Shown here: positions 28,793 to 33,715 of the stretch, in pieces
Position numbering within the stretch: the stretch's first letter is position 1
Layout: each line of letters starts with the position of its first letter
Virus record (IMG/VR): IMGVR_UViG_2534682164_000009
DNA length: 33,715 nucleotides
From: a virus
Taxonomy: Duplodnaviria > Heunggongvirae > Uroviricota > Caudoviricetes
Direction: 5' to 3' (one strand)
Notes under the pieces: generated by a model
What the model saw: the letters and a program-made list of their open reading frames with translations, nothing else
The model's database searches: none
What the model was told of the DNA's origin: nothing
Made by a program: the position numbers and the translations under genes

Positions 28793-31419
28793 ATGACAGT
28801 AAAAATTTCTGGCGTGCTTAAAGATGGCACAGGAAAACCAGTACAGAACTGCACCATTGTGCTGAAGGCCAGACGAACCAGCAGCACGATGGTGGTGAAC
28901 ACGGTGGCCTCTGAAAATCCGGATGAAGCCGGACGTTACAGCATGGATGTTGAGCATGGTCAGTACAGCGTCACCCTGCTGGTTGAAGGTTTTCCGCCTT
29001 CACATGCCGGGACCATTACCGTCTATGAAGGTTCCAGACCAGGTACGCTGAATGATTTTCTCGGTGCCATGACGGAGGATGATGTCCGACCGGAGGCACT
29101 GCGCCGCTTTGAGCAGATGGTGGAAGAGGTGTCACGTAACGCCTCCGCGGTTGCACAGAATACGGCAGCCGCGAAAAATCAGCCAGCGAGGCGGCAACTC
29201 ATGCAACCGATGCTGCAGCCTCAGCACGTGCCGCCAGCACGTCAGCCGGACAGGCCGCGTCGTCGGCTCAGTCAGCGTCTTCCAGCGCAGGAACGGCATC
29301 GACAAAGGCCCGTGAAGCAGCAAAAAGTGCTGCTGCAGAGTCATCAAAAAGCGCGGCAGCTACCAGCGCCAGTGCCGCGAAAACGTCAGAAACGAATGCC
29401 GCAGCATCACAAAAATCGGCAGCCACTTCTGCATCCACAGCGACCACGAAGGCGTCAGAAGCTGCCACCTCGGCACGGGGTGCGGCGGCCTCAAAAGAGG
29501 CAGCGAAATCTTCAGAAACGAATGCATCATCAAGTGCCAGTAGTGCAGCTTCCTCGGCAACGGCGGCAGGAAATTCCGCGAAGGCGGCAAAAACGTCCGA
29601 GACGAACGCTAAGTCTTCTGAAACAGCAGCGGGACAGAGCGCCTCAGCTGCGGCAGGTTCAAAAACAGCGGCTGCATTATCTGCCAGTGCCGCGTCAACA
29701 AGTGCCGGGCAGGCCTCAGCCAGTGCCACCGCCGCCGGAAAATCGGCAGAAAGCGCCGCATCATCCGCTTCAACAGCCACAACGAAGGCTGGCAAAGCCA
29801 CTGAGCAAGCCACTGCAGCAGCGAGGTCTGCTTCTGCAGCAAAAACCTCTGAAACAAATGCAAAGACTTCAGCAGACAATGCTGCTTCCTCTAAGGCAGC
29901 AGCCGCATCGTCAGCCAGTTCAGCGGCGTCATCGGCATCATCTGCGTCTGCTTCAAAAGATGAGGCGACCAGACAAGCGTCAGCAGCGAAAGGTAGTGCC
30001 ACGACAGCAACAACGAAAGCATCAGAGGCGGCAGGCAGTGCGACGGCTGCATCTCAGAGCAAAGTTGCTGCTGAATCCGCGGCAACGCGCGCCGAGACAG
30101 CAGCAAAACGGGCAGAGGATATTGCATCCGCCGTGGCGCTGGAGGATGCGAGCACGACGAAAAAGGGGATAGTACAGCTCAGCAGTGCGACCAACAGCAC
30201 TTCCGAGTCACTGGCGGCAACGCCAAAAGCGGTTAAGGCGGTAATGGGTGAAACGAACAAGAAAGCGCCCTTAAATAGTCCTGCACTGACCGGAACGCCA
30301 ACAACACCAACTGCGCGACAGGGAACGAATAATACCCAAATCGCAAGCACGGCTTTCGTTATGGCTGCGATTGCCGCCCTTGTAGATTCGTCACCTGATG
30401 CACTGAACACGCTGAACGAGCTGGCTGCGGCGCTGGGCAACGACCCGAATTTTGCGACCACCATGACTAACGCGCTTGCGGGTAAGCAACCGAAAGATGC
30501 CACCCTGACGGCGCTGGCCGGACTTACTACTGCGGCAGGCAAGTTTCCGTATTTTACGGGGAATGATGTCGCCAGCCTGGCAACCCTGACAAAAGTCGGG
30601 CGGGATATTCTTGCGAAATCGACCGTTGCTGCCGTTATCGAATACCTCGGTTTACGAGAACTCGGCACAAGCGGGGAGAAAATACCGTTACTCAGTACAG
30701 CGAATACCTGGACTAATCGACAAACATTCAGCGGTGGCCTTTCTGGTGAACTATCCGGCAATGCTTCTACAGCTGCAAAATTAAAAACTGCCAGGAAAAT
30801 AAGCAATGTGGCTTTTGATGGTTCCTCCGATATCACATTAAAAGCAAGTCATGTTGGTGCGTTTGCCTTAGGGAAAACAGGAAGCACCGTTGCGAATGAT
30901 AAAGCAGTTGGATGGAACTGGAGTAGCGGAGCCTATAACGCAACTATTAGTGGTGCATCAACGTTAATTATTCATTTTTATATGGGAGAAGGAAGTTGTC
31001 CTGCAGCTCAGTTTCGGATTAATTATAAAAATGGCGGTATTTTTTATCGTTCAGCCCGTGATGGTTATGGTTTTGAAGCCGACTGGTCCGAATTTTACAC
31101 CACCAGAAAACCTTCAGCAGGAGATGTTGGTGCACTGCCGTTATCTGGTGGTCAACTGAATGGTGCACTGGGTATCGGAACATCCAGTGCTCTTGGCGGT
31201 AATTCGATTGTATTGGGTGATAATGACACGGGCTTTAAACAAAAAGGCGATGGTAATCTGGATGTTTATGCTAATAACGTCCATGTTATGCGCTTTGTCT
31301 CCGGAAGCATTCAAAGTAATAAAACCATAAATATTACGGGACGTGTTAATCCCTCGGATTACGGTAACTTTGATTCCCGCTATGTGAGAGATGTCAGACT
31401 TGGCACACGAGTTGTTTAG
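28793..31419 (+). pseudogene. stf: side tail fibre, lambda Stf-like, with apparent -1 frameshift at A-run 29174-29178 and in-frame TAG at 31417-31419
   Basis: N-terminus MTVKISGVLKDGTGKPVQNCTIVLKA… matches lambda Stf in frame 2; the Ala/Ser-rich KTSETNAK-repeat body and C-terminus are in frame 1; reading continues in frame after the TAG to 31569. Confidence 0.85.
30635..30660. other. left crossover site of invertible segment (gix/pix-like), inside stf
   Basis: TTATCGAATACCTCGGTTTACGAGAA is an inverted, 21/26 match of the right site; shared core GTAAACCGAGGT. Confidence 0.7.
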
Positions 31420-31422
31420 ACC

Positions 31423-31569
31423 ATGAAGAAAGGCGTGATGTATGAAAAATCAGGCCATGTAATCACGGGGCTTGGTATTATCGGTGAAGTCGATGGTGAT
31501 GATCCGGCAGTATTCAGACCAATACAAAAGTTAATTAACGGAACATGGTATAACGTATCGCAGGTATAA
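31423..31569 (+). other. in-frame continuation of stf beyond the TAG (last 48 codons of the Sv tip)
   Basis: …[21 protein letters not shown] aligns with the C-terminus of the inverted Sv' cassette (…[21 protein letters not shown]). Confidence 0.6.
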
Positions 31570-31571
31570 TC

Positions 31572-32105
31572 ATGCAGCATTTAAAAAACATTGTCGCAGG
31601 TAATCCAAAAACCGTTGAACAATACCAGCTAACAAAGAATTTTGATGTTATCTGGTTATGGTCCGAAGATGGAAAAAATTGGCATGAGGAATTAAAAAAC
31701 TTTCAGGAGGATACAATAAAACTGGCTTACACAGTTGAGGGAATAATTATTGCTATAGACAAGGATGTATCAGCAATTAATCCAGAAGGTTTAAGTGTCG
31801 TTGAGTTGCCTGATATTACAGCAAATCGCCGGGCTGATATTTCGGGCAACTGGATGTTCAAAGATGGTGCGGTGATAAAGCGAACTTATACCGAGGAAGA
31901 GCAAAGGCAACAAGCGGAAAATGAAAAGCAGAGCCTGCTGCAGCTCGTCAGGGATAAAACCCAGCTGTGGGACTCTCAGCTACAGCTGGGCATCATTTCC
32001 GATGAGAATAAACAAAAATTAACCGAGTGGATGCTCTATGCGCAGAAGGTTGAATCCACAGACACCTCCAGCCTGCCAGTAACGTTTCCCGAACAACCAG
32101 AATGA
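31572..32105 (+). CDS. tfa: tail fibre assembly protein (Tfa/gpU-type chaperone)
   Basis: 177 aa; C-terminal …[19 protein letters not shown] resembles Tfa family; paralogous to the reverse-strand copy. Confidence 0.85.
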
Positions 32106-32110
32106 GAGAA

Positions 32111-32139
32111 GGCCCGCTATCGGGCCTTAATTTTTATTC
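32111..32139. terminator. bidirectional terminator between convergent tfa genes
   Basis: Hairpin GGCCCG-CTAT-CGGGCC with T-rich flanks. Confidence 0.6.
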
Positions 32140-32658
32140 AGGCTTTTGTGGCCATTCAGGATTTGCCGTATCCACACGGCTGACCAGAACACTGTAGCGT
32201 TCCCATGCTTCCAGTCGTGTGCGTTCCTCGTCTGTTGCCATATTCAGCCTGACAGCGCGTTCCAGCGGCTGGATGACTGATTCAGCTTCGGAAAGCAATG
32301 CGGCCTTTTGTGATTCGGCCTGTTGTTGCAGTTCCTGTTCTGTATATTCCCTCTTTACTACTTTACCATCCAGAAACATCCATTTTCCGTTATTGTCTGC
32401 GTGACGATTTGCCGTAATATCAGGAACTTCAACTATGCTTAGCCCTTCAGGATTAATAGTTGAAACGTCTTTACTGACAGCAACGATGATGTTGTTCTCA
32501 TCGTAAGCAATTTTTATGGTGTCTGGCTGAAAATTCTTTTGTTCCTCATACCAGTTTTTGCCATCTTCGCAAAAGAGCCATACCACGCCCGCTTTTTTAG
32601 TTAGCTGGTATTGTTCCGGTGTTTTCGGATTCCCGGCCTTAATATTTTTCAGGTGCAT
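32134..32658 (-). CDS. alternative tail fibre assembly protein (Tfa')
   Basis: [21 protein letters not shown]… parallels + strand Tfa ([22 protein letters not shown]…); the track ORF has a longer N-terminal extension. Confidence 0.8.
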
Positions 32659-32662
32659 CATC

Positions 32663-33568
32663 TTAAACACTCCCCACGTTGTACCATATTCCCCCAATCA
32701 ATTTCTGAATTGGCCTTCTGGCAACAGTGTCGACAATATCATCCGCATTGCTGTTAATTGCGGCTGTTAAAACATAACCTGACGCATCGCCAAAGCCGTA
32801 GTCGCGCCATACGTTTTTATATTCAATGCTGCCAAGACGAATATCCCGAACGACATGATTATGCAGCCATGTGCTTAACCAGTTGTTTTCCCACACTGAA
32901 CCATAAATATCGCCACTAGACGCAACTTGCGCACCACTTCCCAGCGCAAATCCCCCATCTGTTTTAAAAATGAAATCACCACCACCATCTGAACCGTTAT
33001 TAATATGAACACCATCACCACCGTTATCTTTCCACAAAAACATACGAATTCTTCCGTCTTCGTTGGCGAATGTAATGTGGTGGCGGTAATTACTTTTTAA
33101 TCTAAAATTGCTGCCATTAGATTCAATATCTTTATAAAGATGTAATCCTAACTCATCAATATGTCCGATGCGCGAACCATTTGAATAGAAGCTAATAATA
33201 CCATCTCCATCTTGCCTAAATCCGGTGTCGTTATCTCCCAGAACAATGGAGTTTTCACCCAGTGCGTTATCAGTAGCTCCAATAGCTAGACCTCCTTTAA
33301 TTTTGGCCCCGTGGCTGACAGATATAGCACCTGTTCTCAGATTTATAGCGAATGGCCTTAATGGGCCGATATTACCGTTTTCGCCTTGTCCTTCAGCCGT
33401 CGGAATGAAATGAAGAAAATCTTCTGAACGACGGAAAATTAGACCGAAGGTATCATTGAAAATTCGCAGCGCATTCACCGTGCCAATTTTCAGTTCTCCG
33501 GTCATTTTATCGCCGGAACGCTGAACGGCGTTACCAGCCTTGTTTACCGTTTCCTGTAAACCGAGGTT
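32663..33568 (-). CDS. alternative tail fibre C-terminal cassette (Sv'), promoterless, fused to stf on inversion
   Basis: Reverse frame open from the right crossover site to stop at 32663; shares [15 protein letters not shown](K/R)Q.GDG and C-terminal motifs with the + strand tip; first ATG at 33505. Confidence 0.8.
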
Positions 33569-33576
33569 TTAGATAA
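33551..33576. other. right crossover site of invertible segment (gix/pix-like)
   Basis: TTCCTGTAAACCGAGGTTTTAGATAA, 25/26 match to the gix site as recalled. Confidence 0.75.
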
Positions 33577-33630
33577 TGGCGGTTTCTGGCCTGCATGGCA
33601 TGATTTGTGCTTTTGGACGGGAGATTCAGC

Positions 33631-33715
33631 GTGCTGATTGGCTATGTAAGGGTATCAACAAATGACCAGAATACAGACCTGCAACGAAACGCTCTTGTTT
33701 GTGCAGGATATGAAC
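33631..33715 (+). CDS. pin: serine recombinase DNA invertase (Pin/Gin/Hin family), 5' partial (runs off window)
   Basis: GTG start after GGGAGA; VLIGYVRVSTNDQNTDLQRNALVCAGYE matches the N-terminus recalled for e14 Pin. Confidence 0.85.
   Translation, partial: MLIGYVRVSTNDQNTDLQRNALVCAGYE

Follow-up and report, generated by a model that had tools for sequence, protein, structure and literature searches.

The invertible cassette and its host prophage

The window analyzed here (the whole stretch of 33,715 nucleotides) ends in a tail-fibre cassette that is built onto the side tail fibre gene (stf) of a lambdoid prophage (Table 1). One constant N-terminal part, Sc, is followed by two alternative tips, Sv and Sv', which are encoded on opposite strands, each with its own tail-fibre assembly chaperone. 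This arrangement, with Sv and tfa on the + strand and Sv' and tfa' on the − strand, had been described in the first-pass annotation and is borne out by the ORFs and by the assignment of both chaperones as Caudo_TAP proteins. Sv' had also been described as open from the crossover site to its stop codon. Aligned with the expressed tip of a P1-like phage-plasmid fibre (ca 96% identity), it runs collinearly up to the last residue, and by this comparison Sv' is intact.

Table 1 Features of the cassette (positions refer to the window)
Feature	Position	Strand	Remarks
Sc, constant part of the lambda-type side tail fibre gene stf	28793..30648	+	PF08400 N-terminal domain, Ala/Ser-rich shaft
Left gix/bix-type crossover site inside stf	30635-30660	+	TTATCGAATACC-TC-GGTTTACGAGAA; outer half equals the outer half of published bixL
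Variable tip Sv, now joined to Sc	30649..31419	+	ends at TAG 31417-31419
Cut-off C-terminal 48 codons of Sv	31423..31569	+	in frame with Sv
tfa, tail-fibre assembly chaperone for Sv	31572..32105	+	177 aa, 85% identical to Mu U'
GC-rich, terminator-like hairpin between the convergent tfa genes	32109..32128
tfa', chaperone for Sv'	32134..32661	-	175 aa, 82% identical to Mu U
Silent variable tip Sv'	32663..33562	-	299 codons, no interruption between crossover codon and stop
Right gix/bix-type crossover site	33551-33576	-	TTATCTAAAACC-TC-GGTTTACAGGAA
gin orthologue, first 28 codons	33631..33715	+	runs off the window end
Putative recombinational (Fis) enhancer-equivalent stretch	33649..33715		matches the P1 annotation, nt 19-90 of cin

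The window is a defective lambdoid prophage of Shigella sonnei which adjoins the trp operon. It shows 99.9% sequence identity to S. sonnei 53G (HE616528) and to CP044151, with trpA/trpB adjoining, and the public records for proteins of the locus are named S. sonnei. Because the source is Shigella, none of the E. coli complete genomes was found to span 80% of the region in the collection search. Further copies of the locus in public assemblies were located through an exact match of the 48-aa orphan ORF which corresponds to the cut-off end of Sv.

No terminase, portal, or capsid genes were found in the prophage, its J gene is a pseudogene (a nonsense codon and a 22-nt deletion), and IS elements occur throughout. 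With head genes absent and J broken, phage particles cannot be formed in either orientation of the segment, and a swap of tips therefore has no consequence at the level of the phage. The cassette thus does not serve a particle-forming phage and is not a working host-range switch.

Two frameshifts in the window were considered as signs of decay and rejected. The one in lom (28275) is unique to the window, is located in an A/T run, and is probably an assembly error. The other, which splits stf in the window, is the loss of 1 nt from an A-run at 29173, also within A/T sequence; this deletion is absent from the copies L006, L008, L010, L011, and L016, was found in no other copy, and is probably an assembly error as well. 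Five homopolymer deletions in the window are probably errors.

Crossover sites and inversion

As is typical of Din-family inversion systems, the two 26-bp sites are inverted and imperfectly palindromic, fit the dix consensus, and have an identical 2-bp core, here GA/TC (consensus table and bix sites taken from PMC3241671). On the + strand, the right site reads TTCCTGTAAACC-GA-GGTTTTAGATAA, which is identical to published bixR and matches the gix site of phage Mu in 25 of 26 positions. The inverted gix-like sites had already been proposed to bracket about 2.9 kb. The arms of the inverted repeat (30631-30660 and 33551-33580) are 83% complementary, and the spacing of the sites is 2942 bp. A site pattern derived from these same two sites matches nowhere else in the window and gave no match in 100 shuffles; a scan of the window for Mu gix with up to 6 mismatches returned the same two sites only. 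A second inverted repeat is formed by tfa and tfa' (159 bp, 71%).

That this is a Gin/Pin-type invertible segment, as first proposed from the sites, tips, and chaperones, is corroborated by public assemblies, in which both orientations were found. In S. sonnei 53G, the interior (30644-33567) is 100% identical to the window yet inverted. The only differences are bases of the outer half-sites (30634/30640/30643 and 33568/33571/33577). This is a reciprocal exchange of half-sites at the core, as is characteristic for the Din family. As predicted, inversion replaces the interrupted tip by an intact one: 53G carries an intact fibre ORF of 918 aa (Sc plus Sv'). This exact protein was found in 277 contigs, while the exact 875-aa Stf (Sc plus Sv, ending at the TAG) was found in 72.

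Among individually examined loci, the orientation of the window (state A) is seen in L010, L013, L015, and L016 and the inverted one (state B) in L006, L008, and L011. CP044151 and CP044191, which have neighbouring accession numbers, differ in state. The PacBio contig UGZB01000001.1 has overlapping ends with identical flanks between which the segment is oppositely oriented; the evidence for both states within one culture consists of these redundant contig ends of a single assembly and of chimeric short-read contigs (L020-L022). Sv' contains an IS3-family element in most S. sonnei assemblies, where the constant part of stf has also lost its adjacent position, so that the switch is probably frozen in these.

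The amber codon in Sv

The in-frame TAG (31417-31419) reported near the end of Sv is present. It is followed in frame by ACC and the 48-codon ORF (31423-31569), so that 49 codons are cut off rather than the 48 counted initially. The same codon is CAG (Gln) in E. coli NCTC86 and in a P2-like fibre (context ...RVVQTMKKG...). The possibility of a base-call error, which had been raised together with the TAG, was rejected on two grounds. The sequence context is not CCWGG, GATC, or a homopolymer, which argues against a methylation-linked or homopolymer error, and the codon recurs in all independent assemblies examined, being found in 20/20 independent S. sonnei loci scanned (L003-L022). As judged from these assemblies, all S. 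sonnei copies examined carry a real CAG-to-TAG mutation, which is a case of ordinary prophage decay. Public assemblies list the 48-codon remnant as a gene of its own (48 aa) in 2201 blocks.

A dead adjacent invertase and a candidate acting in trans

The invertase gene which had been noted after the segment does start at 33631 as a gin orthologue; as a functional gene it could not be upheld. In full-length copies (S. sonnei L006/L010 and E. coli NCTC86 L001 were compared), codons 61 and 65 are TGA, and after about 82 codons the gene is cut by a deletion that fuses it to a tfa fragment. By its coding sequence, the cassette's own invertase is non-functional in all full-length copies examined, and the segment lacks the intact serine invertase (Resolvase plus HTH_7) that accompanies Din-family segments. 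Flipping must thus depend on an enzyme supplied in trans. The gin remnant, with both TGA codons and the deletion, is common to S. sonnei and E. coli NCTC86, so that the invertase had died before S. sonnei arose.

The first 100 nt of the remnant are identical to Mu gin in 99 positions, the differing base being nt 80 of the gene. This part of the gene corresponds to the recombinational enhancer (for the concept see PMC3798978) annotated for P1, and a putative enhancer stretch thus appears to survive in the dead gin gene.

The same assembly has a P2-like prophage (4413089-4429676) that encodes an intact invertase of 195 aa (Resolvase plus HTH_7). In E. coli relatives, the sites flanking the gene for this 195-aa invertase equal the published bixL and bixR and are 3.1 kb apart, and the orientation of the segment in the P2-like prophage also varies between genomes. 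At least one further protein of the Pin family (P0094) is recorded under the name S. sonnei. Inversion in trans has a precedent in cryptic prophages, as PinQ acts on the P segment of e14 (PMC12529663). We infer that the 195-aa PinB-type invertase of the P2-like prophage probably flips the present segment in trans.

Relationship to known inversion systems

The literature search retrieved no published description of this S. sonnei locus, which is an ordinary member of a long-known class and involves no new mechanism. The closest layout is that of the Mu G segment with gin: Sc, gix, Sv, and U, followed by U' and S' on the other strand, gix, and the invertase. Similarity extends to the right site (25/26), the 5' end of gin, and the two chaperones (85% to U' for tfa, 82% to U for tfa'). 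In contrast to Mu, the constant part is a lambda-type Stf (PF08400) rather than Mu S, the invertase gene has decayed to a pseudogene, and an amber codon interrupts one of the tips. The tips are mosaic, with Sv only partly S'-like and Sv' matching the P1-like plasmid fibre.

The B segment with pinB of Shigella (Tominaga et al., 1991; GenBank D00660), the source of which has been revised to S. sonnei (PMC3241671), is related through its sites. The right site of the window is exactly bixR, the stf-side site in state B is exactly bixL, and the outer half-sites are identical in both states. However, the exact bixL/bixR pair and the intact 195-aa invertase are located in the P2-like prophage, 3.1 kb apart. 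The locus described here lacks the bixL/bixR pair at about 3.1 kb beside an active pinB by which the B segment is defined. It is a second segment, of 2.94 kb, that belongs to a lambdoid prophage, has a dead invertase, and differs in the inner half-site on the Sv side.

The P segment of e14 with pinE likewise is an invertible tail-fibre segment of a cryptic prophage, and the invertase that flips it, PinQ, is encoded in another prophage, Qin (PMC12529663). It differs in that the pix sites have an AA rather than a GA core (PMC3241671) and in that e14 keeps an active pinE, while the cis enzyme is dead here. The P1 C segment with cin has sites of the same family and an enhancer inside the 5' end of the invertase gene, and the expressed tip of a P1-like plasmid fibre is the close relative of Sv' described above. 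Yet cin is only ca 70% identical at the DNA level, and the cix sites have an AA core (PMC3241671).

Two further comparisons were discarded. Yersinia phage vB_YpM_5 is not a functional comparator for Sv', as both of its tips are of the Sv type. The 471-aa protein P0137, considered as a fusion of Mu Sc to Sv', is a truncated gene call of the lambdoid Stf.

Origin and current activity of the switch

We consider it likely that the locus is a cassette of the Mu G type on a lambdoid stf, located in a decayed S. sonnei prophage with a dead gin, and that it is still flipping, probably in trans. In this reading, a lambdoid prophage adjoining the trp operon of S. sonnei would have received a cassette of this type in its side tail fibre gene. 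The prophage is now a decayed remnant, the TAG in Sv being one more lesion of this decay. A serine DNA invertase would cut both 26-bp sites at the common 2-bp core (TC/GA) and rotate the 2.9-kb segment, thereby joining the constant part of stf either to Sv and tfa or to Sv' and tfa'. The cis elements, which are the two sites and a stretch in the first 90 nt that matches the P1 Cin enhancer, would have outlasted gin, so that the segment keeps flipping. The most probable driver would be the intact 195-aa PinB-type invertase of the resident P2-like prophage, since its sites share their outer half-sites with the present locus.

The orientations might instead be old alleles, fixed before the invertase died, with no flipping today. 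The adjacent pseudogene fits such a history, as does the majority lineage with the IS element in Sv', which is always in one state. We nevertheless give it little credence. The dead remnant is shared with E. coli NCTC86, yet the interiors and flanks of the two states are 100% identical; moreover, one assembly holds both states, and CP044151 and CP044191 differ despite their neighbouring accession numbers. Even less probable is that RecA-mediated recombination between short inverted repeats, or assembly artefacts, produced the orientations rather than a site-specific invertase. The arms do share 12 to 25 bp of identity, and the draft contigs L014, L018, and L020-L022 are clearly chimeric. However, the exchange falls within the 12 bp that surround the core of canonical Din-family sites, the longer inverted repeat of tfa and tfa' is not used, long-read or finished assemblies such as that of 53G would not be misled by a repeat of only 26 bp, and the genome has an intact cognate invertase.

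An improbable alternative, which we rank with the old alleles, is that the switch has been domesticated, the host keeping the stf cassette and its flipping since one chimeric fibre benefits the cell, for example by blocking phage adsorption. The 918-aa stf ORF is still open while J, gin, and the head genes have decayed, and PinQ/StfE2 of E. coli K-12 has been reported to block the adsorption of other phages (PMC12529663). Against this, one tip has a fixed amber codon and the other is destroyed by an IS element in most assemblies.

If the locus is an active segment driven in trans, the cis parts of an inversion switch can persist after the loss of their recombinase and remain active by using the enzyme of a co-resident prophage. 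This would account for the assembly of the locus in two orientations, and the amber codon for the call of a 48-aa orphan ORF in thousands of assemblies. It would also be a source of structural heterogeneity in S. sonnei genomes, where assemblers and annotators would meet alternative or chimeric contigs.

A farther-reaching proposal is that a working switch is kept in the decayed prophage and driven by the invertase of another one, with invertase-mediated recombination between prophages being possible, or that the 918-aa fibre is retained by the host. We regard this as rather unlikely. If true, compatible gix/bix sites would be present on at least two, perhaps three, S. sonnei prophages and could lead to shuffling of tips or to large chromosomal inversions; in the other variant, the 918-aa fibre ORF would have been retained for a benefit to the host such as blocking the adsorption of other phages. 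In the short-read contig L019, the constant part of a Mu-like fibre is joined in frame, via a gix site, to the same Sv', followed by the lambdoid right flank.

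Crossover sites and inversion of the fibre segment

A pair of inverted gix-like sites had been proposed in the first-pass annotation to enclose one fibre tip (Sv) with its chaperone gene tfa on the + strand and an alternative tip (Sv') with tfa' on the - strand; both the sites and this anatomy proved correct. The repeat finder returned one long-range inverted pair (30631-30660 and 33551-33580), inside which lie two 26-bp sites that agree with the published consensus of the Din family (Hin/Gin/Cin/Pin inversion systems). Within the 33.7-kb window, nothing else matches Mu gix when up to 6 mismatches are allowed, or fits a site pattern which was built from these same two sites; shuffled sequence gave no match to that pattern. 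The right site is exactly the published bixR of the Shigella B segment and is identical to Mu gix at 25 of 26 positions. Common to the two sites and bixL/bixR are both outer half-sites and the inner half-site of Sv'.

Features of the prophage, with window coordinates
Feature	Position	Strand	Detail
IS1	924-1693
IS3-family element, copy 1	2155-3419		1.26 kb
IS3-family element, copy 2	13488-14754		1.26 kb
IS21-family element	14744-16470		istA/istB
J pseudogene	24525-27976		nonsense codon and 22-nt deletion
Left crossover site	30635-30660	+	TTATCGAATACC-TC-GGTTTACGAGAA
Right crossover site	33551-33576	- (reading)	TTATCTAAAACC-TC-GGTTTACAGGAA

Three assemblies, that of strain 53G among them, match the window collinearly in the flanks and have 30631-33580 reversed. 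The interior (30644-33567) is 100% identical between 53G and the window, the sole differences being three bases in each outer half-site, and the half-site combinations are reciprocal, which is what cleavage at the 2-bp core would give. The 2.9-kb lambdoid segment truly inverts, at the two sites, and both orientations have been seen. In the 53G orientation, the constant part of the side tail fibre gene stf is joined to Sv' in an unbroken 918-aa ORF, followed by tfa', so that inversion does exchange an interrupted tip for an intact one, as had been predicted. By exact-sequence counts, the 918-aa protein is found on 277 contigs and the 875-aa amber-truncated protein on 72, while the silent tips annotated alone account for 349 blocks (Sv', as in the window) and 2308 blocks (Sv fragment).

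The majority of these 2308 blocks represent a lineage with an IS3-family element inside Sv', in which the stf constant part does not adjoin the segment any more. The interruption, at window-equivalent 32951, was encountered in nine of our loci (L003-L005, L007, L009, L012, L031-L033) and in most public S. sonnei assemblies. Lom and J, like the stf constant part, are not adjacent in this lineage and the orientation is always that of 53G; both tips are dead, and inversion has probably ceased.

In the PacBio assembly UGZB01000001.1, whose circular contig has redundant ends, the locus occurs at each of them, with identical flanks and opposite segment orientations. This is the best evidence here to suggest heterogeneity within a culture. 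Several short-read contigs that hold both junction types agree with this but are chimeric.

The two fibre tips

The + strand ORF through the left site stops at a TAG (31417-31419), which is followed by ACC and, in the same frame, by a 48-codon ORF corresponding to the conserved natural C-terminus of such fibres; exact look-up of this 48-aa orphan gave 2201 blocks of public assemblies. At the position of the TAG, CAG (Gln) is found in E. coli NCTC86 and in a P2-like fibre, the nearest relatives, so the lesion is a single C-to-T change, which costs Sv 50 residues (the Gln itself and 49 codons). The in-frame TAG thus stands as first annotated, but not its distance of 48 codons from the natural end. 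A base-call error is ruled out: the 20 S. sonnei loci scanned (L003-L022) carry the TAG without exception, both orientations included, and it is real. It is ordinary decay, not an arrangement designed so that the silent copy alone works.

No stop codon interrupts Sv' between the crossover codon and its end, as had been claimed. Alignment to known fibres showed it to be about 96% identical to, and collinear from the crossover codon up to the last residue with, the expressed tip of an 822-aa P1-like phage-plasmid fibre. Downstream of each tip lies a Caudo_TAP chaperone gene of its own, with a hairpin between these convergent genes.

Antisense to the Ala/Ser-rich repeats of stf runs a 244-aa ORF (29268-30002, - strand) with a high content of Ala, Asp and Glu. 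Several public assemblies annotate it as a gene; it almost certainly arises as an artefact from the repetitive GCN-rich sequence.

A dead adjacent invertase and a candidate acting in trans

An intact invertase gene does not follow the segment, contrary to the initial expectation. The window ends after the first 28 codons; in the full-length copies examined (S. sonnei L006 and L010, E. coli NCTC86 L001), two TGA codons (61 and 65) interrupt the frame, which enters a tfa fragment after about 82 codons. S. sonnei and E. coli NCTC86 share one and the same remnant, so loss of the invertase is older than S. sonnei. Compared with gin of Mu, D108 and SfMu, the remnant shows 93-96% DNA identity, and its nt 1-100 match Mu gin at 99 of 100 positions. 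Din invertases require a Fis-bound enhancer in cis (PMC3798978). The Cin enhancer in the P1 record covers nt 19-90 of cin and, as the 5' end of the remnant is nearly identical to gin, the equivalent stretch has been kept (33649-33715 plus five bases past the window end); it may still act as an enhancer.

A P2-like prophage carries the gene for a 195-aa protein in which a Resolvase and an HTH_7 domain are combined. In its E. coli copies, this gene adjoins a 3.1-kb invertible H-gene segment with exactly the published bixL and bixR as sites, for which reason we regard the two as the PinB/B-segment system, reportedly described by Tominaga et al. in 1991. The source organism of the B segment was later revised to S. 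sonnei (PMC3241671). One copy of the P2-like prophage (L028) resides in the same assembly that displays both states of the lambdoid segment. PinQ, a Pin-family enzyme, acts in trans on e14, flipping the segment of another cryptic prophage (PMC12529663). The 195-aa enzyme is the probable driver of the lambdoid switch. At least one other Pin homologue has been named from S. sonnei.

The orientation of the 3.1-kb segment itself differs between two S. sonnei genomes (L025, L028). In both, the outer half of bixR (6654-6679 in each locus) is replaced by an IS3-family element, beside an intact 195-aa invertase gene, which suggests that this segment can invert with one degenerate half-site.

Decay of the host prophage

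Shigella sonnei chromosomes, e.g. 53G (HE616528) and CP044151, match the window at 99.9% identity, and the matching region adjoins the trp operon; the fibre proteins are assigned to S. sonnei in the source records. The second IS3-family copy and the IS21-family element occupy the stretch from the lysis genes to gpZ, the expected place of the terminase, portal and capsid genes, which are missing there from the window when compared with the intact NCTC86 prophage. The nonsense codon in J, codon 68 (24726-24728), stands where NCTC86 has Trp, and the 22-nt deletion, near 26397, lies between short direct repeats; tblastn placed the J frame break of 53G at the same point as in the window.

Five 1-nt deletions (24190, 24272, 28275, 28772, 29173) occur in the window but in no other S. 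sonnei copy of the locus, each of them within a run of A or T. They are probably homopolymer errors of the source assembly rather than biology. That at 28275 splits lom (28044-28340 / 28316-28642) and that at 29173 splits stf by a frame change at about this point; taken literally, the latter would mean that neither tip could be made.

Related loci

The lambdoid cassette is a relative of the Mu G segment: tfa is 85% identical to Mu U', tfa' is 82% identical to Mu U, and sites and invertase are gin-type, as in Mu. Unlike the G segment, it is carried on a lambda-type Stf (PF08400) and its tips are mosaic. It has the sites, the architecture and the two orientations of a Din inversion system, and lacks an intact cis invertase and service to a viable phage. 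It is an orphan switch in a dead prophage, driven in trans by an enzyme whose identity we infer, and belongs to a well-known class.

The orthologous NCTC86 segment (L001, 3236-6225) has Sv-type tips on both strands; the inverted copies share 97.7% identity over 776 bp, and the one on the + strand reads CAG. The dead gin remnant described above is present here as well. The NCTC86 stf is annotated as two genes by PGAP, yet is one frame through 934 codons. In the short-read contig L019 (5413-9010), a Mu-like fibre constant part is joined in frame via TTATCGATAACGTCGGTTTACAGGAA to an Sv' identical to that of the window, giving a 476-aa ORF, after which the contig continues into the lambdoid segment and its flank with the dead gin. 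This junction reflects either inter-prophage recombination by an invertase or a chimeric assembly.
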